The notes beneath the pieces are model-generated. The model had not been told where the DNA came from. It saw nothing but the letters and a program-made list of their open reading frames with translations, and did no database searches. The translations under genes were made by a program, and so were the position numbers. From positions 17,968 through 81,967 of IMG/VR virus record IMGVR_UViG_3300026292_000602: a DNA stretch of 64,000 bases; one strand, written 5' to 3'. Of the stretch, positions 23,863-56,104 are shown in pieces; positions within the stretch are counted from its first letter, which is position 1, and every line of letters starts with the position of its first letter. This DNA comes from a virus.

Positions 23863-24282
23863 ATGAATAAAATAAAGAAGTATATGTATATGGGAATAGG
23901 TTTCCTGTGTGTGGGTATTGCTTACATAGGATTTATTACTCCTGGCATACCATTTAGTATATTCTTAGTCATTGCCGCTTGGGCATTTGCCAAAAGTTCT
24001 CCACGTATGGAGGCTTGGTTATATAATCACCCTTGGTTTGGCAAGTTTCTAACTAACTGGACTAAGAAAAGAGTATTCCCTACTAAAGGGAAATATGCAA
24101 TGATTCTAGTCATGGCATCAACCTTGGTGTTTACCTGGTTCGCAACAGAGAATCTTAAAGCTATTATGTGGAGCGGAGGCTTTATGGCACTCGTGGCTAT
24201 ATGGGCTTGGAGATACCCCGGCTCTGTCGAGGAACACTCACGTAGAATAAAAGCAGGCGAAAAAGTTGCCTGGTTAAAGTAA
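23863..24282 (+). CDS. ybaN: YbaN/DUF454 inner-membrane protein
   Basis: GIAYIGFITPGIPFSIFLVIAAWAFAKSSPRMEAWLYNHPWFG. Confidence 0.85.
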   Translation: MNKIKKYMYMGIGFLCVGIAYIGFITPGIPFSIFLVIAAWAFAKSSPRMEAWLYNHPWFGKFLTNWTKKRVFPTKGKYAMILVMASTLVFTWFATENLKAIMWSGGFMALVAIWAWRYPGSVEEHSRRIKAGEKVAWLK

Positions 24283-24528
24283 AGAGTATTTCTTTAACTT
24301 TTTAATTAAATTAGTCCTGCCAATGCCTAATGCAATGGCTGTTTTTGTTCTATTACCATCATAATGAGCAAGGTTATCTTCAATAGCCCTGCGTTCTAGT
24401 TTTTCTAATTCTTCAGGTAATGTTTTTTCTTGAAAATCGGGACCTGTAAACCACTTATCGAATTCATCAACGATTTCGTTCTGTTCACGGTAGTTTTTAG
24501 CTAGATCTGTCCACGAGATTTTAGACAT
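24274..24528 (-). CDS. Fis-like HTH_8 DNA-binding protein
   Basis: LEKLERRAIEDNLAHYDGNRTKTAIALGIGRTNLIKKLKKY. Confidence 0.8.
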   Translation of the reverse strand: MSKISWTDLAKNYREQNEIVDEFDKWFTGPDFQEKTLPEELEKLERRAIEDNLAHYDGNRTKTAIALGIGRTNLIKKLKKYSLL

Positions 24529-24691
24529 AATGCCTCCTTAATATGTGCCTCTAAGGGTCGCTAATAATATTTAGTCTATTAAGTACGCATTTAAATTAAA
24601 TAGGTACTAAACGGTGTAACTTTTGTTACATCTGATAAATAATAATACGAAGGGCACAACTCTACCAGATTAGGGATTACACGGAAAATAT

Positions 24692-25243
24692 ATGAAAATT
24701 AAAATGTTAAAACTTATATTGACAGTAGCAATACTTGGTTTATTTACGAGCAACCTAGCTTATGCTGAAAATACAGTAACATCTACTGTTACAGGAACAA
24801 CAACTGTCGATAAGACTCCACCAACTGCATCAGCACCAAACGTAATGATTAATAATCAAGATGTTTGTTCAACTGGTACAAGTGCCGCAGTACAAACCCA
24901 GGTGTTTGGTATTGCAGGTGGAACTACAATAAGAGACTTAAACTGTGAAAGACTGAAACTATCTAGATCATTATATGGTATGGGTATGAAGGTTGCGGCG
25001 GTCAGTCTATTATGTCAAGATGCACGAGTATTTAATGCTATGGAAATGGCAGGAACACCTTGTCCGTATAAAGGAAAGATTGGTATTGAGGCCGCTAAGG
25101 CTTGGGCTGAAAATCCAGAGAAACGTCCTGATTATGAGAAATGGTTAAAAGAAAATGATCTTGAAGCATACGAAAAAGAATGGAAGAATAAGGCAACTAC
25201 TTGGAGCATCGGTATTGGTGCTATTCTGTTGCTTTTACTCTAA
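24692..25243 (+). CDS. Secreted/membrane-anchored Cys-containing protein
   Basis: Signal peptide; PPTASAP...DVC...NCERLKL...LLCQD...GTPCP; C-terminal TM. Confidence 0.7.
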   Translation: MKIKMLKLILTVAILGLFTSNLAYAENTVTSTVTGTTTVDKTPPTASAPNVMINNQDVCSTGTSAAVQTQVFGIAGGTTIRDLNCERLKLSRSLYGMGMKVAAVSLLCQDARVFNAMEMAGTPCPYKGKIGIEAAKAWAENPEKRPDYEKWLKENDLEAYEKEWKNKATTWSIGIGAILLLLL

Positions 25244-30666: not shown

Positions 30667-30793
30667 AATCTTTTTTTAATCTTTTTTCAATTATCCAATA
30701 AAATCAATGGTTTACAAGGCCAAAAAAAGGTTGACCTTTTGGATCTTTGACCTTATACTATATATAACAATTAGGAAAAAGAGGGCTTAAAAT

Positions 30794-33700
30794 ATGTTAG
30801 AATTACTTCAAGAAATTAAATCCAGAAACATTAAAACAAAGGCTTGGATCGCGGAAGATCCTAAAAACCGTTGGGCTGGTTTATACCCTGAAGATAAGGC
30901 GTATTGGGTGGAAAGAAAAATCACTACTCTTGATGAGTTAGAGAGAGATGAGTTGGCCACTTATATATATGATGCCCACAAGACTGCCTTTGGCTGTAAA
31001 GGTCGTCATTATGATTTTAATGCTATGAGCCTTCAAGAGTTGAAGGACGAAGCCGACTATATTTCTAAGGCTTGTGATGAGCAAATGGAACTTGAAGCCA
31101 AGATGGAAAAAGAGGCGGTCGAACGATTTGAAACTTCTATCAAAGAATATCTTCCAATGGCAGGTAGCAGGGAAGATGCTATTCGTTGGATACTTCAAGC
31201 AGAAGATTTAGATAAGGAATGGGATGCCGGTTATATTTGTTATAACTTAGGTCTTCCATATAGCATGGAGAAAGAATTTCAACCATTAATAACCAAGGAG
31301 GTAGCATAATGGCATTTGAAAGAGAAGCGATGGATTTCGTGAAATTTGATGTGGCTATGGAACATGGCCAAAGAATTAAACCCTGGTTCGAATATGGAAC
31401 TATGTGGTGCGATCACATTAATGAAGAAGAGGCAGATACAATAGTTTCTTCATTAGAAACTTTCACTGGCTACAAGGTGAAAAAGTCTTTACTGAGACCT
31501 AGCAAGACAGAACCATGGAATCAGTGGGCATTTGATATTACCAATTTCAATTTACTCGCATAGATATTGGTAAAATAATGGTTGACTTTTATAGCGACTG
31601 GCTTTATTATTAAACAATAGGCAAACAAAAAAGAGAGGCAAAAATATATGATACAAGGGCAAACAATAACACCAGACATGGTACCAAGCATAACTAACGA
31701 AGCAGAAATGGCGGCGAAAACAGCCATTCTAAATTATCTTAATGATTGGAATGAAAAGACGGGCGGAAACGAATACGGCGAACCAATGTATTGTGGTTTT
31801 GCCTGGGTTGAACTTCCACAGATGAAATTGTCAACGAAATTAGGCAAGGCATTTGAGGCAGTAGGTTTTAAGAAGTCTTATTCAAGAGGCGTCACTAAAT
31901 GGAACCCGGGTAATCACAACGGTCAATCAATGGATTGTAAAGAAGTTGGTGCTCAGGCTTATGCTGAGGTTTTAGAAAAATACGGCGTGAAGGCGTATAT
32001 GGGATCGAGGGCAGACTAATGTCAGTAGATACCGAAGTATATTATAATGTCGAAGACCTAGGTAAGAATCTTTACAGAAAGAAAACTTATTATACGGTCT
32101 GCGTCGAACAAGATGTTCTTGCTAAAGACAAGGACGAAGCTGATCAAAAATTCCTAGATGGCGGTGGAATTAATCATAGCGAAATATCTAGAAACATCAC
32201 AGAAGAAAAAGACGGTGTTGAAACTTATATGGTTGATACCAACTATCAGGAATCAGGCGATACTGAATTCATAGGCAAGGTTGCATATGAAGATGATGAA
32301 TATGCTAAAGAAGATGGCATGGTTGAAATAGATACCTATGCTGAGGAGCATGAAGCATCGCCAATGAAAGACTTTAAAGAAAAAGTTTTAGAGGGAGAAA
32401 CAATATGATTAGATCGAAAACGACACCAAAAGAATTAGTCATCGACTTAACAGGTCCTCAAGGTAATGCTTTCTTCTTGTTAGCCAATGCATCAAAGTTG
32501 GCCAAACAATTAGGGCTGAATCCATTCCAAGTTTTAGAGGAAATGAAGGAAGGTGACTACGAACATTTAATACAAGTCTTTGACAAATATTTCGGAGACT
32601 ATGTGGTATTAGAAAGGTAATTGTATGTGGGAAGATGAATTATTTGATGAAATTCGAAAAGGCGATACCGTTTGGTATAAAGACTCGTCAGGATCGAATC
32701 TAAAAGGCAAGGCAATTTTGTTTGGCCCTATGGGTTGGGTTCTAAAAACTGAATTTGGCACTTCACAGGTAGTAATGGAAGGTGACAATTATTTAGGCCA
32801 TACACCTGGCAAAGGCGAACGAGTTGACGACCACTTGGGAAAGTTCTTAAATGCCTGATTGGATTATGCTTATATTATATTCCATCTTAATAGTTGGGGT
32901 ACCATATGGGTTTATAAGTTTATTATTATTAAGTTGGAACAAGGAGGACCCGAGTGATAGAAAGTGATATAAATTTACTTTTTAAGGTTTTTATATATTC
33001 AAGTCTTTTAGTAGGTTGTGGATATTTACTAGGAAAAGATAAAGGCGTGAAAGTAGGAGCCGGAAGAGCGGTTGATAGTCTATGTGAGAATGGATATTTG
33101 AAGCATAAGAAACAGCCAGACGGAAATGTCGAATTAATCAAACTGAACGGAGAAATAGAATGAAATGGTTATTGATTTCGATGGCACTAAATCTACAAGT
33201 GACTTATCCAGACCAAAAGGTTTGCATGACAGCCCTTGAGCAAGTTAAGACTCAAGATATGGCGGCGATATGTATCCCGGCAGGAGAGGATAAGATTGAA
33301 ACTCAAATGAACTCTGTTTTCACTAATTTTTTAGGATTGGTTAAAGAATTACAGAAAATGGAATTGGAAAACTCCAAAGAAAATGGCACAAATTAGGGGT
33401 TGACCTTTTGAGCAAGAGGCCTTATACTTAAAGAATAATAAGGCATATTAACATTATGAAAAAGAGAGGCACAAATAATATGAACAATCTAGTCACAAAG
33501 GCAAGCGAACTAATATATCAAATGGACAACGATCAGTTGAACCAGGTTATCGATGCAATTAAATTGAAAAGAACTCACATAGCCAAACAGGCTGTAAGGT
33601 CTTTTAGAATTGGTGATATTGTAGGATTCACTGGTAAGAGAGGGAACCAGGTTTCAGGTAAGGTTAAAAAGATTAATCAAAAATATGTTTTGATTGATTG

Positions 33701-34139
33701 TGGTACACAGGGTCAATGGAGAGTTCCAGGAAACCACCTTACTAAATTAGGCATCGGAGAAGAGGCCTAATATGGATAAATTGGAATTACTAAATCAAAT
33801 TAGATTGAACGGTATCGACGGTGTCGATGGTATTATTGATATGATTATAGACACTATTGATGATGGTGATAAGGAAGGAGCCAAAGATTGGCTTCTTCAA
33901 TTAAAAGACGAAATTTACGAGGCAAGTTTATAATGGGACCTTTCTCAGAAGAGAAACAATTTCAAAGAGCCAAGGCTATCGAAAGGCTCATAAAAAATAA
34001 TCCAGATCTTGATGAGATGACTCTCAATATGTGGAAGACCAAACTTAAGAATCTCGCTCTAGACGAAGAACGATATAATGCTAGGGTGAGATCTATTTTT
34101 GAAAATATGAAAAAACACCCACTGGTCAAATGGAACTAA
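30794..34139 (+). CDS. Cluster of early hypothetical genes (30794-31309, 31309-31563, 31648-32019, 32019-32408, 32405-32620, 32625-32858, 32954-33163, 33160-33396, 33480-33770, 33772-33933, 33933-34139)
   Basis: Tightly coupled small acidic ORFs with RBSs downstream of sigma70 promoters; no recognisable family. Confidence 0.7.
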
Positions 34140-34549
34140 AAGAAAATCAATTCATTAAGGTTAAGGTAGAAAATGTAATGTATCCTTATAGGGATCGTTA
34201 TGCTTTTCATATTCCAGAATTTAATTATTACGAAGGTAAGGTAATATATCAACAATGGTTCAAACCCGGAGAGGTTGGAATCACAACCGGAGATCCTAAT
34301 TTTGAATTTAGGGTTATCCAAAAAGAAAGGATTGTGGAGGTGAACGATGAAAAATCCGAATTCCCCAAACAATCGCTTTCGGCACGAAAAGATAGTGAAG
34401 GACAAAGAATCTCTGTTAAGGGTAAGACAGGAAATCTATACGAAGTCCAAATCGGAGGGAGATGGGGATCATCTTGCTCTTGTAAAGGCTATCAATTTCG
34501 TAGGACTTGCAGACACATCGCCGAAGCGGAATCACAGATCGCGGCGTAA
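34130..34549 (+). CDS. SWIM zinc-finger protein
   Basis: YEVQ...SCSCKGYQFRRTCRHI (CxC...CxH). Confidence 0.8.
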   Translation: MELKENQFIKVKVENVMYPYRDRYAFHIPEFNYYEGKVIYQQWFKPGEVGITTGDPNFEFRVIQKERIVEVNDEKSEFPKQSLSARKDSEGQRISVKGKTGNLYEVQIGGRWGSSCSCKGYQFRRTCRHIAEAESQIAA

Positions 34550-34952
34550 AAAAAACCGAAATTAATGGTTGACTTTATCGGTCAGTGACCTTATAATAAA
34601 AGAATAATAAGGAAGAGGCAAAATTATGGCAAACGAATTAGTTGAACAAATTGCAAGAATGAACTTGGAGCAAAGAGACGATTTTGTAAAGACTCTCGTA
34701 AGAAAATGGCCACATATGGCAGAGAGTTTAGGTAATGGTATCGGTCTAGAACTGATGATCAAATTTAACCAACAAGAGAAGGAGGCATCAAGTGATTAGA
34801 GCAATCATTTTTATGGGCTTAGGCGCTTTGGCTTTTTATCTTTATCAGAACCCGGGTGAAATGGACACGGTAGTTCAACAAGGTAAAGATTTATTGAACC
34901 AAGGGGCAACGATAGTTCAAGAAAAAACTAATTAAGAACCAGGTAAGGGCAA

Positions 34953-35387
34953 ATGGATATAATATTCGACATCGATGGGACTTTGATGAATATCGAACAT
35001 CGTAAGAAGTTCGTAGAGCAGAGACCAAAAGACTGGAAGAGCTTTCGTGAGCTTACGAAAGACGATACTCCAAACGAAGATGTCTTTGCGATAGCCATTG
35101 CCTTGCAGAAACAGGGTCATAATATCTTAATCGCTAGTGGGAGGAACAAGAGTCAACGAGCAATCACTTTGATGCAATTGATGGGCCAGAAGTTGGTCTT
35201 CAGAGATATTAAATTAAGAAGTGATAAAGACTTTCGTCCAGATCATTTTGTGAAGAAAGATATGTTAGATCAGTTTCGAGCAGAAGGATGGAAACCTGAG
35301 TTGGTCTTTGATGACAGAACTTCTGTCGTTGAGATGTGGAGAGAAAACGGTCTTCGTGCAGTTCAAGTCGCACCAGGAGACTTTTAA
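34953..35387 (+). CDS. HAD phosphatase resembling the T4 PNK 3'-phosphatase domain
   Basis: FDIDGTL, ASGR, DFRPD...K and FDDR..VV.MWR..GL...QV..GDF. Confidence 0.85.
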   Translation: MDIIFDIDGTLMNIEHRKKFVEQRPKDWKSFRELTKDDTPNEDVFAIAIALQKQGHNILIASGRNKSQRAITLMQLMGQKLVFRDIKLRSDKDFRPDHFVKKDMLDQFRAEGWKPELVFDDRTSVVEMWRENGLRAVQVAPGDF

Positions 35388-35508
35388 TCGGTAGTGGAGT
35401 AGAAACCCTGTTAGACCTAACACCTATGTCAGAAATTAAGTTAGGCGAGTCACAGGGGGGCGACTTTCTAGGAGAGGCCCCCCACCTTTTAACTGAGAGA
35501 GGCAACCA

Positions 35509-37454
35509 ATGGCATATTATATCCTACCGTCAATAGACACCAAAAGATACACGAAGATTCCAAATCTAGAAGGACCCTTTATGTGGCGATCCGGAAAGGT
35601 GGTCTACTACGACCCAATGGAAGGTAAGTATTACGATAGAGATACAGATATGTATCTAGACGATTCAGAACGAGAAGCCCACGATGGGTTTGATAGTTTC
35701 TTTAAAGGAGAGACCAATGCTTAAACCAGAAGATATTAAACCAGGCAAATCTTATGCTTGTAAATTTAAGGCTGAGATGATGTTAGACATCTATGGTCGC
35801 CCACCAGGATTAAGTGATACACCTTTGGCTGGCCCAGGGTGGTATGAGAGTTTTGGCTTGATTACAATCCGAGATATGAATACCAAGTTATTCAAAATCA
35901 CTGATCTAGAAGGTGAAGCGAAGGGTAAGACATATACCGTTCCTTTCGATCAATGCTGGGATATAGACGAAGCGAATTTGGTAAAATAAGAAGTTGACAT
36001 TTGAGCTTTCTGGCTTTATAAATTAAGAATATAAAAAATTAACAGAAAGGCAAGAATGTCAATCCAACCACCAGTAGGCCCATTAGAGCTAGAAGAAAGA
36101 CAAAGAAAACTTGATGCGATGTTGAAGGACTTCATCAAGAAGGGCGGTAAAATAGAAATAATCCCACCAGGAATGACCGGCGAAATGTACCGGGAAAATC
36201 AAAAAGGCACAAAAAAGAAAAAAGGAAGGAAAACTAGGAAATGAGAATTGTCCTAAATAGACCTAAACTCTTCATCTTTGAGATCGAAGGTAATGAAGAA
36301 ATAGAAGTCAATGCGATGGATTTCAAAGATGCTTGTCTTACATTAGAAGAACAGGCTCCAGATCTTAAAATTAATGACATAATTTCAATCCAGGAGATTC
36401 ATTCTCCTATTCCAGGTGTTGATACTATTCATTAATTTTGGTAAAATAGTGGTTGACTATATGAGTCAAAGGCTATATTATAATATTAACAATAAGGCAA
36501 ACAGAGAGGCAAAAATATGTCAACAAGGGCAAGAATAGGGTTTCAAAAAGCAGACGGATCAATCATAGGTGCTTATCAGCATTTCGACGGATATCCAGGT
36601 GGACTTGGATACCTTTTAGTAGATCATTGGGAAGATAGCAAAAAGACAGAATCGGCTATTAAGTTAGGCGATGCATCTTTTTGGAGATATCATGAAGGTA
36701 AGAAAATAGACTTTGATGATAGAGGTCATCCTATGTATGAGATTCAGAATCTTTACTATGGTAGAGATAGAGGCGAAAAAGATGTAGGAGCAAAAACCTA
36801 TAAAGACGAGAAAGAATATTTGTCAAAGGGTTTTAATAGTGGAGAAGATTATATCTATCTCTTAAAGGATGTAGGCGAGCAAGATTTTTTAGGTAAGCCG
36901 AAATATACTTGGTTCTATACGAAGTATGACCAAACGGATAGTCTTAAACCTTTAGAAGCTGATGCGATTAAAGATAAGATTGAAATGTTAAAATATCATC
37001 TTAAGGAGAACAAATAATGTCAGACCATTATGAAGTTAAAGAATTAAGACATACCGACGGAAATTTTGATGTGAAGGTTGGATACTTTTATGAAGACATT
37101 CACCCATCGGACTTATTTGATAATTCACCTAACCCAGACAATGATGGCAAGCCATATTATGACACGGACGAGATGGCAAAAAGAATTGATTCGGGCAACG
37201 ATGCTTGGTTTGGCTTTTGGGCGAAATATTTTTATAAAGGTCACGAAGTAGGTTATGCTAACCTAGGTGGTCTTTATTATGAGAATGATCATGCAGAAGG
37301 CGTTATTGAAAAAGAAGCCAAGTCAGGAGATCATTGTTGGTATAAAGATGTGGTCGAAGAAGCAAAAGATCAAGCGATTAAGGAAGTTGGTGATCTGCAT
37401 AGGCAGATGGAGTTAGACTTCGGTAAAGGATTTTCGACTCAGGCTGTTGGTTAG
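35509..37454 (+). CDS. Cluster of early hypothetical genes (35509-35724, 35717-35989, 36056-36244, 36241-36435, 36517-37017, 37017-37454)
   Basis: Coupled ORFs after early promoters; 36517 starts MSTRARIG...YQHFDGYP. Confidence 0.7.
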
Positions 37455-37736
37455 TCTGGGAAGGAAGGTTTTCGTCCGATGCGGACGGTTTCCCCAGAGC
37501 ATAGCTCAAATAAACCATAAAGCGGCGAAGTAGAAGTAGGAGAATGGCATTGAACGAACGGATTCTACCAACAGAAGAAGGGGGAGATATTGCTAGAGCT
37601 GGGGATACCCAGGGCGACTTCAAAAACTCAAGATCCTACAATTATTTTGGTAATATGGCCAGTTGACTATTAGAGTGAAAGGTTATATTATAAAAGAGTA
37701 ATAAGGCAAACAAGGCACAAATAAAAGGAGGGCAAT

Positions 37737-38399
37737 ATGCCAAATTGGTGTAATAATAATATTAAAATTGAAGGACCTAAAGAAAAGATCAAAGCGATCT
37801 GGGATAAGGTTCAAGCAGACGATGACAAGGGATTTTTCAATCATCTTGTTCCGATGCCAAAAGAACTAGATAACACGACTAGTCCAACCCCTGAAAAAGG
37901 ATCAGCGAATTACAAAGGACCACAGCCGAAGATAGATGGCTTTGATAATTGGTACGATTGGAGAGTTGACCAATGGGGAACTAAATGGGATATTTCAACA
38001 GACGATTCAGGATTGCAGTATAGAGAAGATGGTGACTTAGGTTTCATAGAAGGTTGGTATGATACGGCTTGGGCACCGGCTTTGAATTGTTTTGATACAT
38101 TCCAAAGAAAGCATAACGACATCTATATCACTAATTGGTATTATGAAGGTGGTTGTGATTTCGCAGGGTGTTATACCGATGGTAGTGACGATTGTATTAA
38201 CCCAAGCGATCATCCTAAAAGCGAAGAGTGGTTAGATGCTGACAGAGATAGTTTCATAGGTCAGTTAGATGATATGTTTGGAATAGGTGAGTCAATAGCT
38301 CAATATGAAGAAGAACAAGAAACAGAAGCGGAGCGAAAGGTTAGAGAACTGGTAGTTGAGAAGAAAGCTCAAAATATGCCAGAAGGAGAATTAGCCTAA
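37737..38399 (+). CDS. DUF1281/YubB ferredoxin-like domain protein
   Basis: MPNWCNN...LVPMP...WYDWRVDQWGTKWD...DTAWAP...YYEGGCDFAG. Confidence 0.75.
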   Translation: MPNWCNNNIKIEGPKEKIKAIWDKVQADDDKGFFNHLVPMPKELDNTTSPTPEKGSANYKGPQPKIDGFDNWYDWRVDQWGTKWDISTDDSGLQYREDGDLGFIEGWYDTAWAPALNCFDTFQRKHNDIYITNWYYEGGCDFAGCYTDGSDDCINPSDHPKSEEWLDADRDSFIGQLDDMFGIGESIAQYEEEQETEAERKVRELVVEKKAQNMPEGELA

Positions 38400-41193
38400 T
38401 GCCAGATAACTTACCGAGCATTCAGAGAGATGGGGGTCAACAGACTTCCACTTCTCACGATTATATTCACACTGACAAACACGATATGGAATTGAGTCAT
38501 TATGTAATGGCTGAAAGATGTATGTTAGTTGAATACCATACGATTAAAAATGAAATAGAAACAGATGGAACTTCTGATACATTGATTTATATCCTAGAAG
38601 GCGGTCATAGAGGGTTTCACAAATATATGGATGCCCACTTGATAGAAGAATATAATGATGTTGAAGATAAGTTTTATCAGCTTCATGCAGATGGAGAATT
38701 ACCATATAGTCTTTATGACGGTGATCCACTTGTAGAAGACGAACCAACAGAAGGGCAGGTATCAAATGGCTAAATTTAGATTGAATTGTGATGTGGATTC
38801 TATCGTAGAAGAAGCAGAACATTTAGAAGATCTATTTAAGGACGGCGTAGAAGCAGAGTCCGAAGAAGAAGCCGAAAGAATTGTTTCGGCAAAGGTTAAA
38901 GAGCTTATGTATGGCGGACCTTATTATAACTTAACCGAGGAGGGCAACGATGAGTAAGAAGATAATAGGAATCAATGAAGATTTCAATAACAGAGATAAG
39001 GAAACGGTATCCGAAATTATATGGGAAGCCGTTAGGGAACATCCTGACTTTCAGGACACCCCTGGTATAACTGGAATCAGTTATCAAATAAATGTGACAG
39101 TCACGGAGGAGAAATGAGTTGGTTTGATGATGCGACTTGGACTTGTCCTATATGTGATTACACTCTACACGGCGAAGAACCGGCTGTTCATGTGATCTGT
39201 GATAATTGTAAAGAGGGAGTTGAGGAAGTGGCATTTCCTTTCCCGGGAGATTGCTAATGGAATTCTATCCTAAAGACAAAGATCCTAGACTAGACGAGAG
39301 AACGGCTAGGTTCCATGGTAGGGTTATGAAAGAAGACCTAGCGACTCTTTCTTATGTTCCTAACACTCCTAATAGAGATATCAATGTTCAAAGAGCGACA
39401 AATCATGTGACTTGGGACTACGACAAAGATATGTGGTGCGAAGTTGATCATTTAATGATTGGTCTTTATATTAAAGCGAAGACAACCGATACAAGAGAGT
39501 TCCTAGAAGATAGGTTGTGTCGTGATGTCGTTAAGCTGATCAAAGGACCTAGGTACTATGAACAAGCGAAGGTCTATTGCATGATTGATATGTTTTATCC
39601 AGAAGATGAAAGCATCTATGATATCGTTAAGAAGCCAAAGAAAGATAGAGAGGCTCATAGCATATCAGGAAACGAAGGTGAAGTCACTTATTATGTGACA
39701 CTTCATATTCAAGAATGTAATGCAATGGATTTGATTGTATATGAATCTAGAAATAAAGACGGGTCCGAAAGAGGCGACTATTTTAATCTACACGGAACGA
39801 ATTTAGAAGGAAAGGTGGCGGCATGAATAAAGATATGAAATGTCTTGATTGCGGAACCGATATACCAGCATCAACAGATCATTCATCAGATGAACCTTAT
39901 ATGTTTGTCTGTAATGATTGCAGAGATGAGATAGGTAATGGTAAGCCCTATGAAGAATAAGAAATACTCAATAGGGCATACCTATACGGTCTGGAAAGAT
40001 GTGACAGCAAAGAACGAAGAAGAAGCAATCGATATCGCTTGTAATTCGAATTATTCTGTGAATGTCTACATAGGTAAACAGGATCCTAGATGCACGGTGA
40101 AAGCGACAGCAGAGCTGAACGAATACGAAGATCCCAAAGTCCACGAATACGACAAATAGACCAGATAAATACTCGTATAATAGGAGTAAGACAAATGGTT
40201 AAATTATCAGTTCATTGGAAGGATATGCTTTCAGTCAAGAATGCTATGGCAAGAGCTGACGCAGGTCTACCAGTCAAAGAAGCTCAGAATAGATACAGAG
40301 TTAAGTGGGATCACCCTGATTGGGACAAAGGCGAAAAGGTTGAAGAAAAGATATTCAGCAGTATGGAAGACGCCAAAGAGTATGGTGCTTGGGTGGCTCG
40401 TAATTACGATCTCAGAAGAGAAGGAAAAGACGAGAACTCATTAGATGTTAGAACAGGATATAACACCGTACCTGAACCTAGTTCAAATGTACCAGTCGCA
40501 ATAGAAACTCCATTCGGCCTATACGAGCTTACAGAGATAGATGTCTTTGGGCAAGACTCAGGCAAGTGGAGTCTAGTAGACGCCTTGGTTAAAGAAGGCG
40601 CCATCAAGAAGGTCGAAGACAATTTTAGATCAGGATAATAGCGGAGGCGAGAAAAGCCATTTAGAGCCTACGGTCGGAAAGCCAAAATTTCAGACCAGGG
40701 TTATAAACAGAGTGCGAAGCACGGACGGTCGCGATTTTTGTTCCGGAGTCTACGCCTCCTACACCAAAAGTCGCTCCGCTGATCCTATTCCACATAGAAC
40801 CACCACATCATTTACCTTACATACCACCGACCCCCAGGAGTTTTATCTACTATGGCTGATAAACCTATTCTCTACTCGATAGACGACGAGACAAAAGAAC
40901 TCTTAACCGAAATGCTTAATCTGTTAGAAGGCCTCGCGGACCTACAGATGACAGATGAAAGCACCGAAGAAATGCGACTCCTTAATCGTAGTGTCGGGGA
41001 ACGGTTCGGGATAGAGTTCCGTGATATCGTGCTAGAGAGTGATCAAGATAGTGACGGCAATCCTAGGTTCACGGTAATGTCCTATAAAGAGCCTTCGTCT
41101 AGGAGAGACCCCTCGGAATACCTAAGGCTTGTTTCTAATCGTGACTTAGAAGGTGCGTCTGATGGGGTGCCTAAGAATGACAATAATGAGTAA
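38399..41193 (+). CDS. Cluster of hypothetical genes (38399-38773, 38766-38957, 39251-39826, 39938-40159, 40195-40638, 40852-41193 and short CxxC ORFs)
   Basis: Plus-strand ORFs with RBSs; the 40195 gene has a TAAATA late promoter. Confidence 0.65.
40640..40780 (+). repeat. Conserved non-coding element copy A
   Basis: Collinear similarity to the reverse complement of 54009-54126, including an exact AAAGCCATTTAGAGC. Confidence 0.7.
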
Positions 41194-41830
41194 GGGTAGA
41201 TCTAGAGTGACACCTACGGTGCTCTATTGGCTGTTAGTCTTTTAATCCTTTCTACTACACGCCAGGAATTTTAGAATTTCCATATCACATAGATTAAGTT
41301 TTGTCTATCATTTGCATAATAGAATAGGTCAGCTACGCCAACCTATCGTGTTATCTTACTATTTTTAAGAGTCAGATTGCTAAAAAAAGCATAGGCCCCG
41401 CTGTAAGTATAGTAGATGAACGAACAAGAACAGATTAGATTCCGTTGGTACAAGAGTGATGATGCACGGTTTTGGATTGTGGATGAAGTCTTGGGTATCA
41501 ATATAGGGTCTTGTCGCAGTCAGTCGGTTGCTGAACGACTATGTGAGAAGCTGAACTTGTTAGAGCAAGAGGTAGTTTGGAATTGAATGGCAGAGTATTC
41601 AAACTATGCCTGTCGCCACCGTCCCCAATCCTTTTTTTATATTTTTTGAAACCTATTTCCACCGTATAAGAACGGTCCAAAACCGTGGGGCCATGGTCGG
41701 CCTCGAGAGCGGGTGCTAGGGATGCCTCGGCCTTTATTAACCATTTAAACGGTGCTTCTACGGTTGGGCCTTCGGCCCCTTATAGTATTAAATGTGGCTA
41801 GTCGCTGAGCTCTACTACTATAAGCTTCGC

Positions 41831-41928
41831 CTCACTAGCTATATAGGGCTCACTGACGCTTATATAAGCTCACTAGCCGTCATTAGTCACTACGAAGCTC
41901 ACTAGGTATTCACTACCGTTCACTATTG
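41831..41928 (+). repeat. Seven short TCACT(A) repeats
   Basis: ctcactag, ctcactga, ctcactag, gtcactac, ctcactag, ttcactac and ttcactat in about 100 bp of non-coding DNA. Confidence 0.75.
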
Positions 41929-41940
41929 GATCTTCTTTAT

Positions 41941-42159
41941 CTACTTCTTTTTGGATTTCTTTGTGATCTCTTTGGAGCCCCAGATTCTTCTCAGGTTCGC
42001 TATAAGTTCTTTGGTCTCTTCTATTGGAATATCTTTGACCGGTTCTTTCGTGGTCGATCCAGGATTTTTCAGATGTAAGTCTTTGAAATCCTTAGACTTT
42101 TTGGCCGAACTTAATTCATCTTTCAAGCTCTTTTTGAATGGTACATTCTTTAATCTCAT
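41941..42159 (-). CDS. Small Lys-rich hypothetical protein
   Basis: 72 aa, with a sigma70 promoter at 42194. Confidence 0.55.
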   Translation of the reverse strand: MRLKNVPFKKSLKDELSSAKKSKDFKDLHLKNPGSTTKEPVKDIPIEETKELIANLRRIWGSKEITKKSKKK

Positions 42160-42621
42160 GGTACCTTATATTATGGCATCATTATTGATAAAAGTCAAGG
42201 AGGAGGTTTACCAAAAATTCTCTATATTTTTCAAGAGGTTAGGACCCTGAGCCTCAGGTCAGAGTTCGGCCCACCCTTTGAGTATCGAAGTTTTTCTGTC
42301 CTGGTTTGTCTTAACCTTACCCTTTTTTTGGTGGGCGGATCTCTTGCTCCGGCTTATACTATTATAATATGATCTCTTGGGGGATTTGTCAACCATTTTC
42401 TTTGTTTTGGCCCCATCTTTTTTTGGCACTAGATCTAGTGGGTGGGGGAGGTATAAACCACAAGCGGAAATCAGCCCATCGGGAGCGTGGCAGTCTTTAT
42501 TATAGCATATTTTGGATTGGATGTCAACCAAAAAAAAATGGTATTTTTTGGAAAAAAGAGGTTGACCTTTTGGATTAGAGACTGTATTATAATATTAACA
42601 ATAAGGAAATAGGAGGGCTAC

Positions 42622-42978
42622 ATGGCTAGAGAAATTACTTTAAAACCTAATATACAAATAAGTCTCGATGGGACTAGCATTTGGGATAGAGCAGGGACCA
42701 ACCCTGAGACCGTAAATGTCAGCAGTATTACATTGAGGGAAGAGACCTACGATGATGATAGCTGGTGGGACATGGTTATAGAACACGATGGTCCCTGGGA
42801 GATCTATACTGATAAGGGATTCGTTAAGGGGATCTCGGATTTAGTAGGTCCCGGTTGGGATGTTGACTTTAGTGAGCAAGGTCTACAAGAGGATGGTAGA
42901 GCTCATTTTGACGTGCATTCTACACCCGATGAGATCACGCATGAGGTTAAAGAATCGCTAGAAATGGAAGGAAATTAG
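42622..42978 (+). CDS. Early hypothetical acidic protein
   Basis: IYTD.GF...FSEQGLQ motif; own promoter. Confidence 0.7.
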   Translation: MAREITLKPNIQISLDGTSIWDRAGTNPETVNVSSITLREETYDDDSWWDMVIEHDGPWEIYTDKGFVKGISDLVGPGWDVDFSEQGLQEDGRAHFDVHSTPDEITHEVKESLEMEGN

Positions 42979-43032
42979 GGGTTGACAGATCCCTATTTTG
43001 GTTATATTATAATAGTATAAAGAGAGGGCAAT

Positions 43033-43698
43033 ATGAATAAAAGAACTAAATTTTTCGCAACCGTGGCATTGATGGCAGGCATGAGCTCCTATGGGGTGGC
43101 CGCTGATAAGTTAGATTCATTTGATCACGCCGCAGAGTTGACATCGCAGGCCAAGACTATATTATTTCAAGAATTAAACGAAGCAAAGGCTCCTAACCAC
43201 AGCCACCAGGCTATTGTATGTTTAGCAGAGAACATCTACTTTGAAGCTAGAGCAGAATCAATGGAAGGCAAGGCGGCTGTGGCAAACGTCACAAGGAACA
43301 GGGTAGAGGACAAGAGATGGCCTGGTACCTACTGTGAAGTGGTTCAAGAGGGACCTGTTAGGGAGAGCTGGAAGACCAAGAAGGATCCAGATCTAGCAAA
43401 GGAAGACAGAATTTATTATCCTAGAAAGCATAGATGTCAGTTCAGTTGGTATTGTGATGGTAAGAAAGATATCATATGGGCCAACAAGGAGAAGTCAGGC
43501 CAGACCATAGAGGCCAATGCAAGGGCTTGGAGAGATGCAGTGAAGGTGGCTATCTATACTCTAGGTTATGGATCGTATAGGGTCAACGATAATACCCACG
43601 GGGCTGTGTTCTACTATAATCACCACCTGGTGACACCTAGTTGGAGCCACGAGAAAGAGTTCATTAATATCATTGGCAACCACACTTTTATGAAGTAA
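43033..43698 (+). CDS. SleB/Hydrolase_2 cell-wall hydrolase
   Basis: CLAENIYFEARAE, AVANVTRNRV, WPGTYCEVV, CQFSWYCDG, GAVFYY, IGNHTF; signal peptide. Confidence 0.9.
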   Translation: MNKRTKFFATVALMAGMSSYGVAADKLDSFDHAAELTSQAKTILFQELNEAKAPNHSHQAIVCLAENIYFEARAESMEGKAAVANVTRNRVEDKRWPGTYCEVVQEGPVRESWKTKKDPDLAKEDRIYYPRKHRCQFSWYCDGKKDIIWANKEKSGQTIEANARAWRDAVKVAIYTLGYGSYRVNDNTHGAVFYYNHHLVTPSWSHEKEFINIIGNHTFMK

Positions 43699-43783
43699 AA
43701 TAAGGGGAAAATAATGGTTGACAAATTGGATAAAAGAGTGCATAATATACATATAATAAGAAATAACAGAAGGGCAAAAATAT

Positions 43784-44822
43784 ATGAGTAAAACAGGGCA
43801 ATGGGTATTAGAGATGCAAGAAGACAGTTGGCATCTTAACAGAGATCAGTTCATAGAGAAGCATGGTATCAACCAAGTTGATGTATGGGATGATGAGCAT
43901 AAGAAGATGGAGGACGAGGGGTTCTCTAAAGAAGAAATCAATCAAATGTATATGACGAAGGGAGTGTAAGTATGAAGTTGAATCAACAAGGGTCGAATAT
44001 GACCGAGATAGTGACTAATGCAGGCAAGAGGATTTTATTCAGTTATGAAACTCCTGTCGCAGGATGGTGTGAGCAGGGTGCTTTCAGAACAGAAGATAAG
44101 TTTTCTGTCACAACGTCGAAACACATTAACAAATACCTAGGTGGCAAAGACGTAGGTAGGGTAGTTCCCCAGGCTTGGATAGAAGGGTTGGTGAGCTAGT
44201 GAAGAAGATTCTAATCTTGATTATGATGGTCCCCTTATTGGGGGCCTGCACTATGACAGGGAAGGATATGATCAAGACAGCGAACTTGATCAAGAATACC
44301 TCTAAACTAACCAAAAGCGGTGTATCGGAATCGATCATCGTTAAGACGAAAGACATTTTGGATCCGAATAGAGGTGGAGGCAAGTGGTAGACATTTTGGA
44401 AAGATAATGGTTGACATTTTCAATCCAATGTGTTATTATATATAAACTAATGAATAGGCAATTTTCTAATAAAAGGAGGCATTATGTCTACAAGTAAAAT
44501 GTATACCGTAGCAGGTACAAGTACCTTTAATGGTAAAACAAAAGTAAGATTCGCGAATGACTATGTGAGTAGGTTCAAGATCCTTACTAAGAACGGTCAC
44601 GATAATATCGAGATCCTGGAATTGGATCATCCAATGTCCAAAGGTGATGTGTGTAAATTCTTATCCACGCACGAAAAATTCCAAAACGAAGCACAACAAT
44701 CTGCAATCGCAGAGTTCGTCGTTAGGAATGTTAAAGTTGACACGACTCCAGCAGTTGAACCAGCTCTTAACGATATCGTTAAGCAAGAAGCTGAGGCAAC
44801 ACCTGAAGTAGAGTCTGCTTAA
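43784..44822 (+). CDS. Early hypothetical genes (43784-43969, 43972-44199, lipoprotein-like 44199-44390, 44484-44822)
   Basis: ORFs with RBSs after sigma70 promoters. Confidence 0.7.
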
Positions 44823-44912
44823 TCTAGCACAGCAATCAATCGAATAAGTCCCGGGGTGAACCTCCGGGCATCGATCCCCAGAACAGAAGAAGGACCAGGA
44901 CAGTAATCTATC

Positions 44913-44997
44913 GCTCCCATGATGGAATAGGTAGACATAACAGACTTAAAATCTGTGGCCAATTGGCGTCCCGGTTCGAGTCCGGGTGGGAGTACCA
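44913..44997 (+). tRNA. tRNA-Leu(TAA)
   Basis: GCTCCCA...CT-TAA-AA, long variable arm, GGTTCGAGTCC...TGGGAGT-A-CCA. Confidence 0.95.
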
Positions 44998-45008
44998 ACC
45001 TTTGATAT

Positions 45009-45085
45009 CTACCCGTAGCTCAGCAGGATAGAGCAACGGTCTTCTAAACCGTGGGTCGGGGGTTCGAATCCCTCCGGGTAGGCCA
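45009..45085 (+). tRNA. tRNA-Arg(TCT)
   Basis: CTACCCG...CT-TCT-AA...GGTTCGAATCC...CGGGTAG-G-CCA. Confidence 0.95.
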
Positions 45086-45314
45086 AAGGTGTTGCAAAAA
45101 TACAACAAAAATAATGGTTGACAAAATGGATAAGATCTGCTATTATTATAATATGAAACAATTAAAAGAGATCATAAAAGAAACCTTAGATTTTTGGCCT
45201 ATGACGATCGTAGTGCCAGGTCTATTAATTCTTATTCTTTTTAATAATATTGGTTGACATTAGGTCAATTAGGTGTTATATTAAGAGTATAATAAGAAAC
45301 AGAAAGAGGGCAAA

Positions 45315-46112
45315 ATGTTATCACTAATAGGTTTATTCGCAATCGCGTTCGTAGTAATCAAGTATTTTCCAGACATATTGATGTTCTGTGTGAAGGCGGC
45401 TATCGTATTGATTGGCTTGTACTTTTTACTTGGAGCTCTATTGTGGATATTTGGGGCTTCGATCGCTATACACATGAATGGCGTTTTATTAGGATTATAG
45501 AAAAATAATGGTTGACAAATTGGTTTGTTGACTGTATACTGTAAGTATAACAATTAGGAAAGAGGGCAAAAATGAGTCAAGATTTTAAAAGTAGAAATCC
45601 AAAGTTCGTAGGCTTAACCAGGTTTTGGGGAGGTCAGAAGAGAGGTTCTTGTGTGCAGGTGACTGTTGCAAGGAACTGGAGAAAAGAAGGTGACGTAGGT
45701 CCCGCAGATAAGTTCTTCAACTCCATAACATTGTCGAAGCAAGAAGCAGTGGCGTTGGCCCAGGACTTGTTGGACTTCGCAAGTGGGACTGAAGTAGACG
45801 AATTCGACGCACCAGTTTTGGAGTGTCAGACAGACTTTACACCAGCAGATAAACCGAGGGCAAATTAGGGGTTGACAAACCAATCCCTATATGCTATTAT
45901 AATATAATAATAAGGAGGGCAACTTGAAACAAGTAATTCAAATTTTAGGATATTTTTTAATCGCACTAGGCTTGATGGCAGTAGCAGGATCAGGCGGAGA
46001 CTGTGATGGAAGATGTGGCCCAGGGAATTCAATCATCGAGATGATGCAGATCGCAGGTATCGGTCTAGCTATGATGATCACAGGGTTCTACTGTGCTATG
46101 CAGAAAAGTTAA
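45315..46112 (+). CDS. Early small genes (45315-45500 membrane, 45572-45868, 45924-46112 membrane)
   Basis: Each has its own promoter and a GAGGGC RBS. Confidence 0.65.
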
Positions 46113-46193
46113 ATTAGGGGTTGACTTCTAGATACTCAGAAGTTATACTGTAAGAACAATAAGGCAATAACAACATTTAAAAGCGAGGGCTAA

Positions 46194-47198
46194 ATGACAC
46201 AACAAATAAAAATCAAATCAGGCAGTTACAAGATTAGAGGCAAGGACGTCGAACTTGCTGGCATGGTCTTTCCAATGGTAGAAGAGTTCAAAGTAGGAGC
46301 TCAAGGTGGTTACGTAACTGTTGACGGAAAGGCTATTGCAGGCTTTCCAGATCGTAACATTAAGATCAAAGTTGACTCAGCAGATGACTACGAGTTAACA
46401 CGTGCCAAAACAACTGTTAGAGAAGAAACAGACGAAGAGACAATCGAACGTTTACGTGAACGATTCCAAATCCTAGAAGATATGACAAGAGCTTGTAAGA
46501 AAGGCGATGTACGTGCCATGATAGTTACAGGCCCTCCAGGAGTTGGTAAGTCATTCGGAGTAGAGAAAGTACTTGGTAAGCATGAGCTGATCGCTGAGTT
46601 AGGTGACAGACCTGCGAAGTATCAAGTTGTTAAGGGTGCGATGAGTGCCATAGGTTTATACTGTAAACTGTACAACTACGCCGACAAAGACAATGTACTA
46701 GTTTTTGATGACTGTGATAGTATACTACAAGAAGACTTGAGCTTGAACATTTTGAAAGCGGCTCTAGACTCTAAGAAGACTAGACGTATACATTGGAACA
46801 CAGATTCCTTCAAGTTACGTAACGAAGGTGTTCCGGACAGTTTCGAGTTCAAAGGTAGTGCAATCTTTATCACGAACATCAAGTTCGATAACGTTAAGTC
46901 TAAGAAGATGAGAGATCACTTAGAAGCTATTGAGAGTAGATGTCACTACATAGACTTGACGATTGATACTGAACGTGAGAAGATGTTACGTATCAAGCAG
47001 ATCGTTACTGATGGTATGCTGAATGAGTATGCATTGGGTGAAGAACAAGTCGAGAGAGTAATGGACTTTGTCGACATTAATAAAAAGAACTTAAGAGAGC
47101 TGTCATTAAGAACAGTACTTAAGATTGCGGACTTGGCTAAAGCATTTCCAAACAATTGGGAAGCTATGGCGGAGAATACAGTACTACGTAGAGCCTAG
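46194..47198 (+). CDS. P-loop/AAA ATPase
   Basis: Walker A GPPGVGKS, Walker B LVFDDCD, IFITN sensor-1 and SRC arginine finger. Confidence 0.85.
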   Translation: MTQQIKIKSGSYKIRGKDVELAGMVFPMVEEFKVGAQGGYVTVDGKAIAGFPDRNIKIKVDSADDYELTRAKTTVREETDEETIERLRERFQILEDMTRACKKGDVRAMIVTGPPGVGKSFGVEKVLGKHELIAELGDRPAKYQVVKGAMSAIGLYCKLYNYADKDNVLVFDDCDSILQEDLSLNILKAALDSKKTRRIHWNTDSFKLRNEGVPDSFEFKGSAIFITNIKFDNVKSKKMRDHLEAIESRCHYIDLTIDTEREKMLRIKQIVTDGMLNEYALGEEQVERVMDFVDINKKNLRELSLRTVLKIADLAKAFPNNWEAMAENTVLRRA

Positions 47199-47268
47199 CC
47201 CTCAACTTGCTCCGTGTACTGTACGCCCCTGGTAGAGTTGTGCCCTCGGCTCTCCAGGGGCACTTTTA
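47180..47268 (+). terminator. Double hairpin ending in a terminator; both hairpins carry GCCCTC at the loop
   Basis: GCCCCTGG-T-AGAGTTG-[TGCCCT]-CGGCTCT-CCAGGGGC-ACTTTT, preceded by AGTAC..GAGC..[GCCCTC]..GCTC..GTACT. Confidence 0.7.
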
Positions 47269-47388
47269 TGGCTAAAACCTCGCACAAATACACACAAAAA
47301 AGATTGAAAAATACCACACATTTTGGTTGACCTTTGCTCTAGTAGACTGTATACTGTAAGTATAATTAATTAAAGAGGGCTACACAAT

Positions 47389-54574: not shown

Positions 54575-56104
54575 AAGCAACGTTTAAAAAGTTTTGTAAG
54601 TGGCAAGAGGATCACTGTGAACGTATGAGAAAGCTAACAGGCATAACTCATATGCAAATGGCGTGGATCAGTTTCACTAAAGGTTTACTACTAGGTATGC
54701 TTTTAATGTTACTAGTGTCTTGTGCAAATACAAAATCAGCTGACGTTGGTTATGAAGAACAACCAAGAAACCTTCCAACACTATTCAAACTTGATGCTAT
54801 GTCAAAAGTTTTAACTTGTATGTTTGCACCTGAAACAGAGGAATGCAAAAAGTTAAGAGAAGAAACTAAGAACATGGACAAAGAGTGGGACGAACAAGAA
54901 GAAACTCAATACGATAATAAAGCAAAGTAATCTTGTTGACAAGATGTTTTTTTGAGGTATAAAAATAAAACATCTCGATAAATACTATTGTAGATGAAAG
55001 CAAGTTGAGGGCTTTCAAATAGTAACATAGATGGAGAGGGTAATAGTAGATCCATTTACTGCAATAGCCGCCGCGACAACGGCATTCAACACAGTCAAGA
55101 AATTTGTTCAAGCTGGCCAAGACTTCGAAAACACAGTCGGGCAGATGGGCAAGTGGTACACAGCAATATCAGATTTCCGCAAAGGACAACAGATGCAAAA
55201 GAAGCCTCCGTTGTTCAAAAAACTTTTCAATGCAGGGTCAGTAGAAGAAGAAGCACTAGCATTGTTAATGCACGAAAAGAAAATCCTAGAACAAGAAAAA
55301 GAATTACAAGCACTATTAAACTTTCGTTATGGTTATGGTACTTGGGACGAGCTTAAAGAGATGCGTCGTAAGATTAAAGACCAAAGAGAGAAAGCAGTTT
55401 ATAAACAAGCACAAATGAGAGCAGACTTCATAGAGACTGCACAAATTGGTACAGCAGTTTTAGTACTGTTAGCAATAGTAGGTGGATTTCTTTATTGGAT
55501 ATTCAAATCAAAAGGAATTATATGATCTATGCCGCGACACTTTTTGGATTTATGGTTACTGCTTTACTACCTACAACTAGTGTTCTTGCCAAGGGTGCCA
55601 AAACCTATGGTGGCACTAAACCTTATACTTATGAGCAACAAATAAGAAGAGGTGAAAGAGTACAACCCAAATTAGTTACAGCACGTAGAGTTTATATGGG
55701 CTTTATTGGAGACAGTTTAGTATGCGTATACGTTGGTGCCAAAAACTCAAATGAAGTTATTGTAACTGGACGAGACGATAGATGTATGGGTAGTATGCAA
55801 GTACCTTATGCACCAGATCCTGACTTTAATTGGCGTAAAACCATTGAAGTAATGAAAAAGGATATGGATTAGTTCTATCTTGTCGAGACTGCTCGAATAC
55901 GTTCTTTTCCGTCTATCTTCTTTGGAAAAATTCTACTGTATTAGTTAGCGATTTAATTTGAGTTTCTAGAAAATGAATTCTCTTTTCTGCTTGTTTAATT
56001 ACATCAACAGTTTTGAATCTACCTTTACCATCACGTTTACAAGTTTCTTCTAACAACTTCCTAAACTCACTTTTGAATTTAGTCATTATAGGCCTCCTCC
56101 ACAT
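54571..56104. CDS. Hypothetical genes (54571-54930 +, 55031-55525 +, 55522-55872 +, 55913-56104 -)
   Basis: ORFs with TM or signal segments; 55031 has a DPFTAIAAA N-terminus. Confidence 0.6.

Follow-up and report, generated by a model that had tools for sequence, protein, structure and literature searches.

In the genome of an uncultured virus (IMG/VR virus record IMGVR_UViG_3300026292_000602), the gene of a P-loop ATPase is followed by two hairpins whose loops carry GCCCUC, the reverse complement of GAGGGC, a hexamer located at the ribosome-binding sites (RBSs) of early genes, including that of the ATPase itself. This raises the question of whether the hairpins serve only the ATPase mRNA or act on other transcripts; the initial annotation of the region considered them to be an antisense timer that shuts off the early genes. 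We analyzed a window of 64,000 nucleotides, positions 17,968 to 81,967 of the 82-kb record, the completeness of which is estimated at 23%; all positions below are those of the window. The hairpins are almost certainly a selected RNA structure, and the RNA probably works by pairing with the GAGGGC tags of early genes and with the leaders of two late-type genes, designated here t1 and t2. The best explanation of the whole, namely that the 3' end of the ATPase mRNA is a base-pairing regulatory RNA that lowers the translation of these partners, has in our estimation about an even chance of being correct.

The motifs GCCCTC (47198–47203) and TGCCCTC (47241–47247) are located on the + strand, each in a hairpin of its own (H1 and H2), as had been proposed. 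The 47170–47290 region folds into these two hairpins with an energy of −45.6 kcal/mol (z = −3.8), and 0 of 200 shuffled sequences folded as well. When folded alone, H2 reaches −28.1 kcal/mol (z = −5.7). Its loop is UGCCCU, the final C of TGCCCTC being paired with G47240, and the 15-bp stem is followed by a U tract of only four residues; the tract comprises 6–8 U in relatives. The stem is rich in G+C, and with the U tract behind it, H2 closes the transcription unit and is, by its sequence, the intrinsic terminator of the ATPase gene, which agrees with the initial annotation. H1 alone folds with −16.5 kcal/mol (z = −3.7), and its loop CCCUCAA stands on a weak helix of 2 bp. The 5' arm of this hairpin is part of the ATPase open reading frame (ORF), and the stop codon TAG (47196–47198) gives the G of GCCCUC; thus, the assignment of the hairpins to the 3' untranslated region (3'-UTR) is correct for H2 but only in part for H1. 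Like small RNAs (sRNAs) derived from 3'-UTRs, the hairpins have no promoter of their own and share their 3' end with the mRNA; no further promoter was found between that of the ATPase gene and the hairpins.

A search of IMG/VR with the ATPase revealed 271 relatives, of which the best 80 were fetched. All loci with an ATPase identity of 65–97% (L003–L064) have hairpins directly behind the stop codon; their stems are unrelated in sequence, and their loops are (U/A/C)GCCCUC(A/G). CCCUCCC-like loops were found in only one distant locus, L052. The array statistics were obtained from 52 distinct arrays located behind an orthologous ATPase gene, each folded separately. These arrays contain 1–5 hairpins, and the two-hairpin form seen in the window is present in 20 of the 52. 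The loop motif is unpaired in the minimum free energy fold in 136 cases out of 146, and its mean unpaired probability is 0.92, versus 0.34 for the rest of the array. In the 41 distinct H2-type hairpins (G-UGCCCU-C), the six loop-adjacent pairs are paired in 85% of cells, versus 34–50% with the partner slid, and 71 double-sided changes were counted versus 22.5 in shuffles, none of 500 shuffles reaching the observed value. Where the last ATPase codons of relatives have changed, whether synonymously or not, the 3' arm of H1 has changed with them. RNAalifold gave no structure for H1, as the 3' arms of differing length were misaligned, and folding per sequence was used instead. In all, the loops are kept and the stems covary in more than 50 relatives, as was anticipated for a functional element. 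Each genome has one array. In the Rfam scan of the window, only tRNAs exceeded the gathering threshold, and no match with E < 0.2 was found over the arrays of five loci. A literature search covering phage sRNAs directed against the Shine–Dalgarno (SD) sequence, early-gene stem-loops of T4-like marine phages, and GCCCUC/GAGGGC in phages revealed no description of the element, which is one without an Rfam family or published description.

The complementary word GAGGGC occurs 22 times in the window, versus 10.4 ± 3.6 copies in shuffles (0 of 100 shuffles reach 22). Eleven copies on the + strand are located 3–8 nt 5' of start codons, and seven of these stand directly behind TTGACA-17-TATNNT promoters; the initial annotation had indeed claimed this word at many early starts, including that of the ATPase. 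The RBS words of the + strand block at 30–48 kb are GAGGGC(A/U), GAGGCA, and AAGGGCA. According to a crude gene list of the window, AGGAG or GGAG is the RBS word of the structural and late genes of either strand, so the AGGAG type ascribed to the late genes was also found. The 7-bp duplex of tag and loop has a predicted energy of −12.0 kcal/mol; the values are −6.3 for the tag with the 16S tail and −2.4 for AGGAG with the loop. Two GAGGCA words (GAGGCACATATTAAGGAGGCATTATG) are present at 24531–24551, in the − strand leader of ORF 24274–24528, a divergent neighbor of t1; therefore, the variant tag is not limited to the early block. Sibling hairpins with UGCCUC loops, which would correspond to the GAGGCA tags, had been suggested as well; none were found in the window, where the sole intergenic + strand TGCCTC (41723) folds no better than shuffles.

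The link between loop and tag extends beyond the window. In five relatives of 256–357 kb, one of which is rated complete, gene-strand GAGGGC is packed in one 10–15-kb block around the ATPase gene, and the GCCCUC hairpin array is present in a single copy inside this block; elsewhere, both words are at the control level. Every array-bearing locus has 1–12 GAGGGC tags before ATG codons, and the 18 loci of the nearest array-less clade have 0–1. The array is also absent behind the gene in two further ATPase clades and in the cultured phages D479 and PA5oct; a plain terminator occupies its position in cultured relatives. Thus, the loops are the complement of a tag confined to the early block, and array and tag occur together across clades, both of which speak for the initial annotation. 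In the pooled loci, the letter after the tag is A in 244 cases, U in 49, G in 20, and C in 6; for the complement of the letter preceding the loop motif, the counts are 84, 46, 18, and 1, which is a similar rank order. The array-less clade (L065–L082 and G006–G010) has a different, genome-wide RBS word, AGGCAA, located 1–9 nt before most start codons; the gene strand of G006 (61.8 kb) contains 56 copies of it, versus 3–6 for the reversed control word. Hairpins with UGCCU loops were not found in two fragments of this clade, which represent 12–17% of a genome.

In addition to the short tags, both hairpins have a long perfect complement on the sense strand of the window, in the leaders of t1 (H2) and t2 (H1). 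Among 3000 random 101-nt genome segments, 6 have an inverted match of at least 18 nt elsewhere, and 12 have a second match of at least 15 nt. When the hairpins are allowed to open, the net cofold gain is −16.1 kcal/mol for t1 and −13.5 kcal/mol for t2. It amounts to −0.6 to −6.2 kcal/mol for the core-tag sites, figures that are underestimates because cofolding cannot model loop-only contacts, and to about −3 kcal/mol for late controls. The predicted fold of the t2 leader includes a possible small hairpin with AAGUUGAGG in its loop, where it would be able to kiss the loop of H1. In the t2 leaders of L403, L404, and L408, GAGGGCA is located in the loop of a perfect hairpin (GACAG-AGGGCAAUA-CUGUC), which would permit loop–loop kissing with the array.

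The sequence (A/T/G)TAAATA precedes the complementary stretch by 8–17 nt in the t1 and t2 leaders and their orthologues (window, L111, L188–L206, L349–L416). The T4 late promoter is TATAAATA, which the GATAAATA upstream of t1 and t2 resembles; the TAAATA-type word is not enriched in the window (16 observed versus 19 expected in shuffles). Judging by their position and conservation, the long complements would form the extreme 5' ends of late-type transcripts, and the partners with the strongest predicted pairing resemble late genes that encode envelope proteins. In L111 (positions 1345–1445, G011), the 100 nt located 5' of the t1 orthologue contain AAAAATTTGACGGTG three times in direct orientation; these copies could be regulator-binding or promoter elements.

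If the long complements reflect pairing, they should be seen to change together with the hairpins, and this can be examined in orthologous leaders. Orthologues of t1 are present in four further array-holding records (G011, G002, G004, and G021), and three t1 proteins are orthologous with 55–57% identity (E = 8e-50 and 3e-6). The t1 leader of G011 has 19 nt complementary to the same H2, where one C-to-U change keeps a G.U pair. The leader of G002 has 15 nt complementary to the loop and 3' arm of a different hairpin, and that of G004 has 12 nt complementary to the last hairpin and a second tag on the SD. The 18-mer itself is kept in the t1 leaders of eight further contigs with differing flanks. 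When 53 arrays were compared, the cognate array of the t1 leaders ranked 1st, 1st, 2nd, and 16th, the last rank being low because the hairpin class is common to many arrays. A matrix of RNAduplex energies for t1 leaders against arrays was not used, as the energies were inflated by long interior loops.

The t2 leader and H1 exist in three matching states. In the window and L015, AGCAAGUUGAGGGC stands against GCCCUCAACUUGCU (CAAGUU with AACUUG); in L004 and L005, CAAGUUAG stands against CUAACUUG, an extra UAG corresponding to a CUA insertion in H1; and in L006 and L007, CAGGGU stands against ACCCUG. The cognate H1 gives the best score for the t2 leader in four of five contig pairs. More distant t2 leaders have either a 16-nt tag fitting the common CGCCCUCACGCUCUAC hairpin class or a tag in the loop of a leader hairpin. 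In G003, a complete genome, the gene of a 92-aa membrane protein has a 14-nt complement of one hairpin at a distance of 10 nt from its ATG, on the 5' side. A 13–15-nt word of this genome (AAATCAATGACTTAGC and its complement) is repeated four times in the early block (G003:C1 11600, 17066, 17654, and ~19935), once directly after the array. At the level of sequence, the match of orthologous leaders with their own, different hairpins is covariation between separate RNAs.

Table 1. Location of the hairpins, their predicted partners, and the associated early-gene features in the window.
Feature	Position	Strand	Remarks
P-loop ATPase gene, T4/T2 NrdC.10 homologue (phrog_1250)	46194–47198	+	Last codons form the 5' arm of H1
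Sigma-70-type early promoter TTGACT-17-TATACT	46121–46149	+	Predicted to drive the ATPase mRNA and hairpins; promoter scan
GAGGGC tag at the ATPase RBS	46185–46190	+	3 nt before the ATG at 46194; GAGGGCU is the complement of the H1 loop AGCCCUC
Hairpin H1	47177–47223	+	Apical loop 47199–47205 (CCCUCAA); GCCCUC 47198–47203 overlaps the stop codon
Hairpin H2 and terminator	47225–47261	+	15-bp stem with one bulge; loop UGCCCU 47241–47246; UUUU 47264–47267
18-nt perfect complement of the H2 5' arm and loop (47229–47246)	24651–24668	+	t1 leader; 10 nt after GATAAATA (24634–24641), 24 nt before the ATG
t1, predicted high-affinity partner of H2	24692–25243	+	Signal peptide, hydrophobic C-terminus; phrog_20531, without a Pfam family
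15-nt perfect complement of the H1 loop and 3' arm (47197–47211)	54999–55013	+	t2 leader; 15 nt after GATAAATA (54977–54984), 17 nt before the ATG
t2, predicted high-affinity partner of H1	55031–55525	+	164 aa, C-terminal membrane helix
Early-gene block with GAGGGC(A/U) at the RBS	30781–47380	+	GAGGCA and AAGGGCA variants interspersed
GAGGGC tags of the early block	30781, 32007, 37728, 38940, 42613, 43024, 45306, 45562, 45915, 46185, 47375	+	Several directly behind TTGACA-17-TATNNT promoters

The ATPase ORF matches phrog_1250 and, weakly, AAA_16. The protein is 33% identical to NrdC.10 of the T2 and T4 phages over its full length, and its identity with Pseudomonas jumbo-phage proteins is 46%; given this likeness, the source phage is, as far as its sequence tells, an uncultured marine relative of the T4-type and jumbo phages. 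The G+C content of the window is ~37%, and the window contains six tRNA genes. Two of them, tRNA-Leu(taa) and tRNA-Arg(tct), are located at 44913–45085, within the early promoter block ~1 kb 5' of the ATPase gene, and relatives have 2–3 tRNAs at the equivalent site. Family searches revealed no recognizable RNA-binding domain in the ATPase, no functional name for its neighbors, and no named family for t1 and t2. Metatranscriptome data were available as contigs assembled from RNA libraries of three studies, in which ends, strand, and level cannot be read and DNA carry-over is possible. These contigs start at 45914 and 45942 and end at 47056–47228, and none crosses 47229–47340; the halt before 47229 is a weak hint of termination. 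The two starts, from one sample, lie just 3' of a consensus promoter (45872–45900), which fits a transcript start there as far as assemblies can indicate.

We propose that the 3' end of the early NrdC.10-like ATPase mRNA would be a regulatory RNA of two hairpins, the second doubling as the terminator. The loops (A)GCCCUC(AA) and UGCCCU would pair with the GAGGGC(U/A) tag over the SD core of about a dozen early genes, and with a much higher predicted affinity, H2 would form 18 bp with the t1 leader and H1 would form 15 bp with the t2 leader. The likeliest outcome would be occlusion of the RBS or cleavage of the duplex by RNase, so that translation of the partners would fall as the structured RNA accumulates; action in trans, repression, and accumulation are what we infer here. 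Since the ATPase stop codon is covered by the 5' arm and loop of H1, this hairpin may form only once ribosomes stop finishing the ATPase ORF, which would couple the activity of H1 to the translation of its own tagged mRNA. Selection at the RNA level, together with complementarity kept while both sides change, makes base pairing the best explanation of the data. Should pairing occur, its net effect would more probably be repression.

Several observations weigh against this proposal. The core pairing of loop and tag comprises only 6–7 nt, and to our knowledge there is no chaperone for it. It is unlikely that an RNA with two loops, produced from one promoter, would be a stoichiometric match for at least 12 strongly transcribed early mRNAs, unless it is much more stable or catalytic. 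The t1 and t2 sites are located 17–24 nt 5' of the start codon and not over it; therefore, simple RBS occlusion does not explain them. The ATPase ORF and H1 are represented in the RNA contigs, whereas H2 is not. In the t1 leader of G021, only the core tag GAGGGU is present, and the long tag of the G002 type fits a widespread hairpin class and hence is not genome-specific. Finally, the expected covariation of the loop with the leader tag was not seen at the locus level: the correlation between the flanks of loop and tag per locus is weak (r = 0.26; 0.12 and −0.12 for the others), no clade with an altered loop was found, and none had both loop and tag changed. As for the timer proposed initially, pairing with the early tags is well supported, but the restriction to early targets does not, as the 18- and 15-nt partners lie behind the late-promoter-like TAAATA. 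Given the stoichiometry against titrating all early mRNAs, an early shut-off timer is one of several outcomes compatible with pairing.

The closest architecture is found in the cuckoo/CcsR sRNAs of Alphaproteobacteria (RSs0680a-d, alpha-r14, and SmelA075/A099), which comprise 2–4 adjacent hairpins that vary greatly in their stems and share an identical loop, C-rich and anti-SD-like, are made from the upstream gene's 3'-UTR, and end in a terminator (PMC4615179; PMC8034643). The analogy drawn in the initial annotation holds at this level, as the 52 arrays likewise consist of 1–5 adjacent hairpins with variable stems and a common loop. However, the loop of the cuckoo/CcsR RNAs is CCUCCUCCC, whereas that of the phage is GCCCUC, and these RNAs are encoded on an alphaproteobacterial replicon behind a DUF1127 (ccaF) gene and not by a phage behind an NrdC.10-like ATPase gene. 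In addition, they target the generic SD, while the phage loop fits a tag limited to the phage's own early genes.

Other known regulators share single features with the element. The c4 antisense RNA of phages P1 and P7 is part of the same transcript as the genes it controls, and its exposed loops pair with short sites, including the RBS. The element resembles it as a phage-encoded RNA with exposed loops matching short RBS-overlapping sites; however, c4 has one target operon with two sites, whereas here a regulon-wide 6–7-nt tag is seen together with two remote partners of greater length and repeated hairpins that vary in number, and the Rfam C4 model gave no match in the threshold scan. OppZ and CarZ of Vibrio cholerae are autoregulatory sRNAs derived from 3'-UTRs, which retain the mRNA terminator and act through a single-stranded seed and Hfq. 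The element is like them in having no promoter of its own, in lying at the mRNA 3' end, and in that it could act on its own operon, as the ATPase gene itself is tagged, but it uses repeated hairpin loops instead of a single-stranded seed with Hfq. In T4, the RegB endoribonuclease (GGAG) and the RegA repressor pick early messages by a short motif in or at the SD and spare late ones. Early messages are singled out at the SD here too, but RegB and RegA are proteins, while the recognizer here would be an RNA. No matches to RegA (PF01818) or RegB (PF10715) were found in the five large relatives, in a search where the control genomes also gave none. The C-rich loops of RsaE/RoxS and RNAIII of Firmicutes (UCCC loops) pair with G-rich RBSs over 6–9 nt; unlike the phage element, these sRNAs are host-encoded and have generic SD targets without a private tag. 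In the PeSL (promoter-early stem-loop) cassettes of T4-type phages, a stem-loop accompanies each early promoter throughout the plastic region, whereas here the promoters repeat but the GCCCUC hairpins are single-copy. The CsrB/RsmZ sponges of CsrA/RsmA have GGA loops, while the phage loops are C-rich and without GGA.

The same pairing could also have another outcome. The RNA might stabilize or activate t1 and t2 by covering their 5' ends, or the many early tags might be a sponge that holds the RNA off t1 and t2 until early transcripts decay, in which case the tags would be the timer and the late leaders the true targets. The long sites do lie at predicted transcript 5' ends, 8–17 nt after TAAATA and off the start codon, the t1 and t2 sites are by far the strongest predicted partners, and the stoichiometry speaks against titration of all early mRNAs. 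Yet the core tags are located right on the SD core, 3–8 nt before starts, which is the classic position for repression, and the call of late promoters rests on a motif that is not enriched (16 versus 19); we leave such an outcome a minor share of the probability. Another possibility, which we consider improbable, is that the hairpins are an array of protein-binding sites: a phage or host protein, possibly the upstream ATPase, would recognize the GCCCUC loops, and the match with the tag would be secondary. Binding sites of proteins typically have constant loops and variable stems, the hairpins always follow the same ATPase gene, and with CcaF1/CcsR there is already a case of a protein that is encoded upstream and acts on the hairpins of its own 3'-UTR. 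This explanation, however, does not account for the confinement of the complement to the gene block of the array or for the co-occurrence of array and tags across clades. Moreover, the complementarity of t1 and t2 continues for 8–12 nt in the variable stems and varies as they do, and the ATPase is without a recognizable RNA-binding domain.

The long complements also bear on two explanations in which the hairpins do not act on other RNAs by pairing. If they were purely cis-acting 3'-end structures, H2 would be a terminator, H1 would be a stabilizing or translation-coupled structure, the loop sequence would be constrained by termination or RNase resistance, and its match with the tag would have arisen by chance between G+C-rich motifs. 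Such a view agrees with the G+C-rich stem and U tract of H2, with the RNA contigs of three studies, which end at 47056–47228 without any across 47229–47340, and with the plain terminator at the equivalent place in cultured relatives. But terminators need neither a fixed loop nor 2–5 tandem copies, and the invariance of the loop over 146 hairpins, the confinement of the complement to neighboring genes, and the remote complements of 18 and 15 nt would be left unexplained, which makes this view quite improbable. We find it very improbable that the signal is one of DNA, the hairpins and leaders being mobile PeSL-like promoter/stem-loop cassettes that shuffle genes by recombination in T4-type genomes and the inverted 18-mer and 15-mer being scars. 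Promoter–leader cassettes do recur many times in the early block, and each long partner exactly repeats half a hairpin in inverted orientation. However, the stem-loop array is single-copy per genome and does not recur with each promoter, the G.U pairs and the strand specificity of the covariation suggest that selection acts on RNA, and scars would neither persist nor change concurrently in the orthologous leaders of genomes that have diverged.

Returning to the base-pairing regulatory RNA, its possible meaning is that of a private translational code, an idea that we put forward tentatively and regard as less likely than not to hold in full. The array would read the tag of the early genes, while hairpin-specific extensions would address single late envelope messages; the balance of abundant low-affinity early tags and a few high-affinity late leaders would set the timing of infection. 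Such a system would be an RNA-only counterpart of RegA/RegB, evolving by gain, loss, and retargeting of hairpins. The long partners, which are new in the window, would be natural compensatory pairs specific to each hairpin, and they suggest that targets may be recruited by inverted copying of half a hairpin into a leader. Temporal control in T4-type phages is known to rest on proteins, namely sigma-factor appropriation, RegA, and RegB. If the proposal is true, a virulent phage would possess an RNA regulator that recognizes its own messages by a dedicated RBS tag. The element itself is found widely among uncultured jumbo phages that abound in marine and fresh water.

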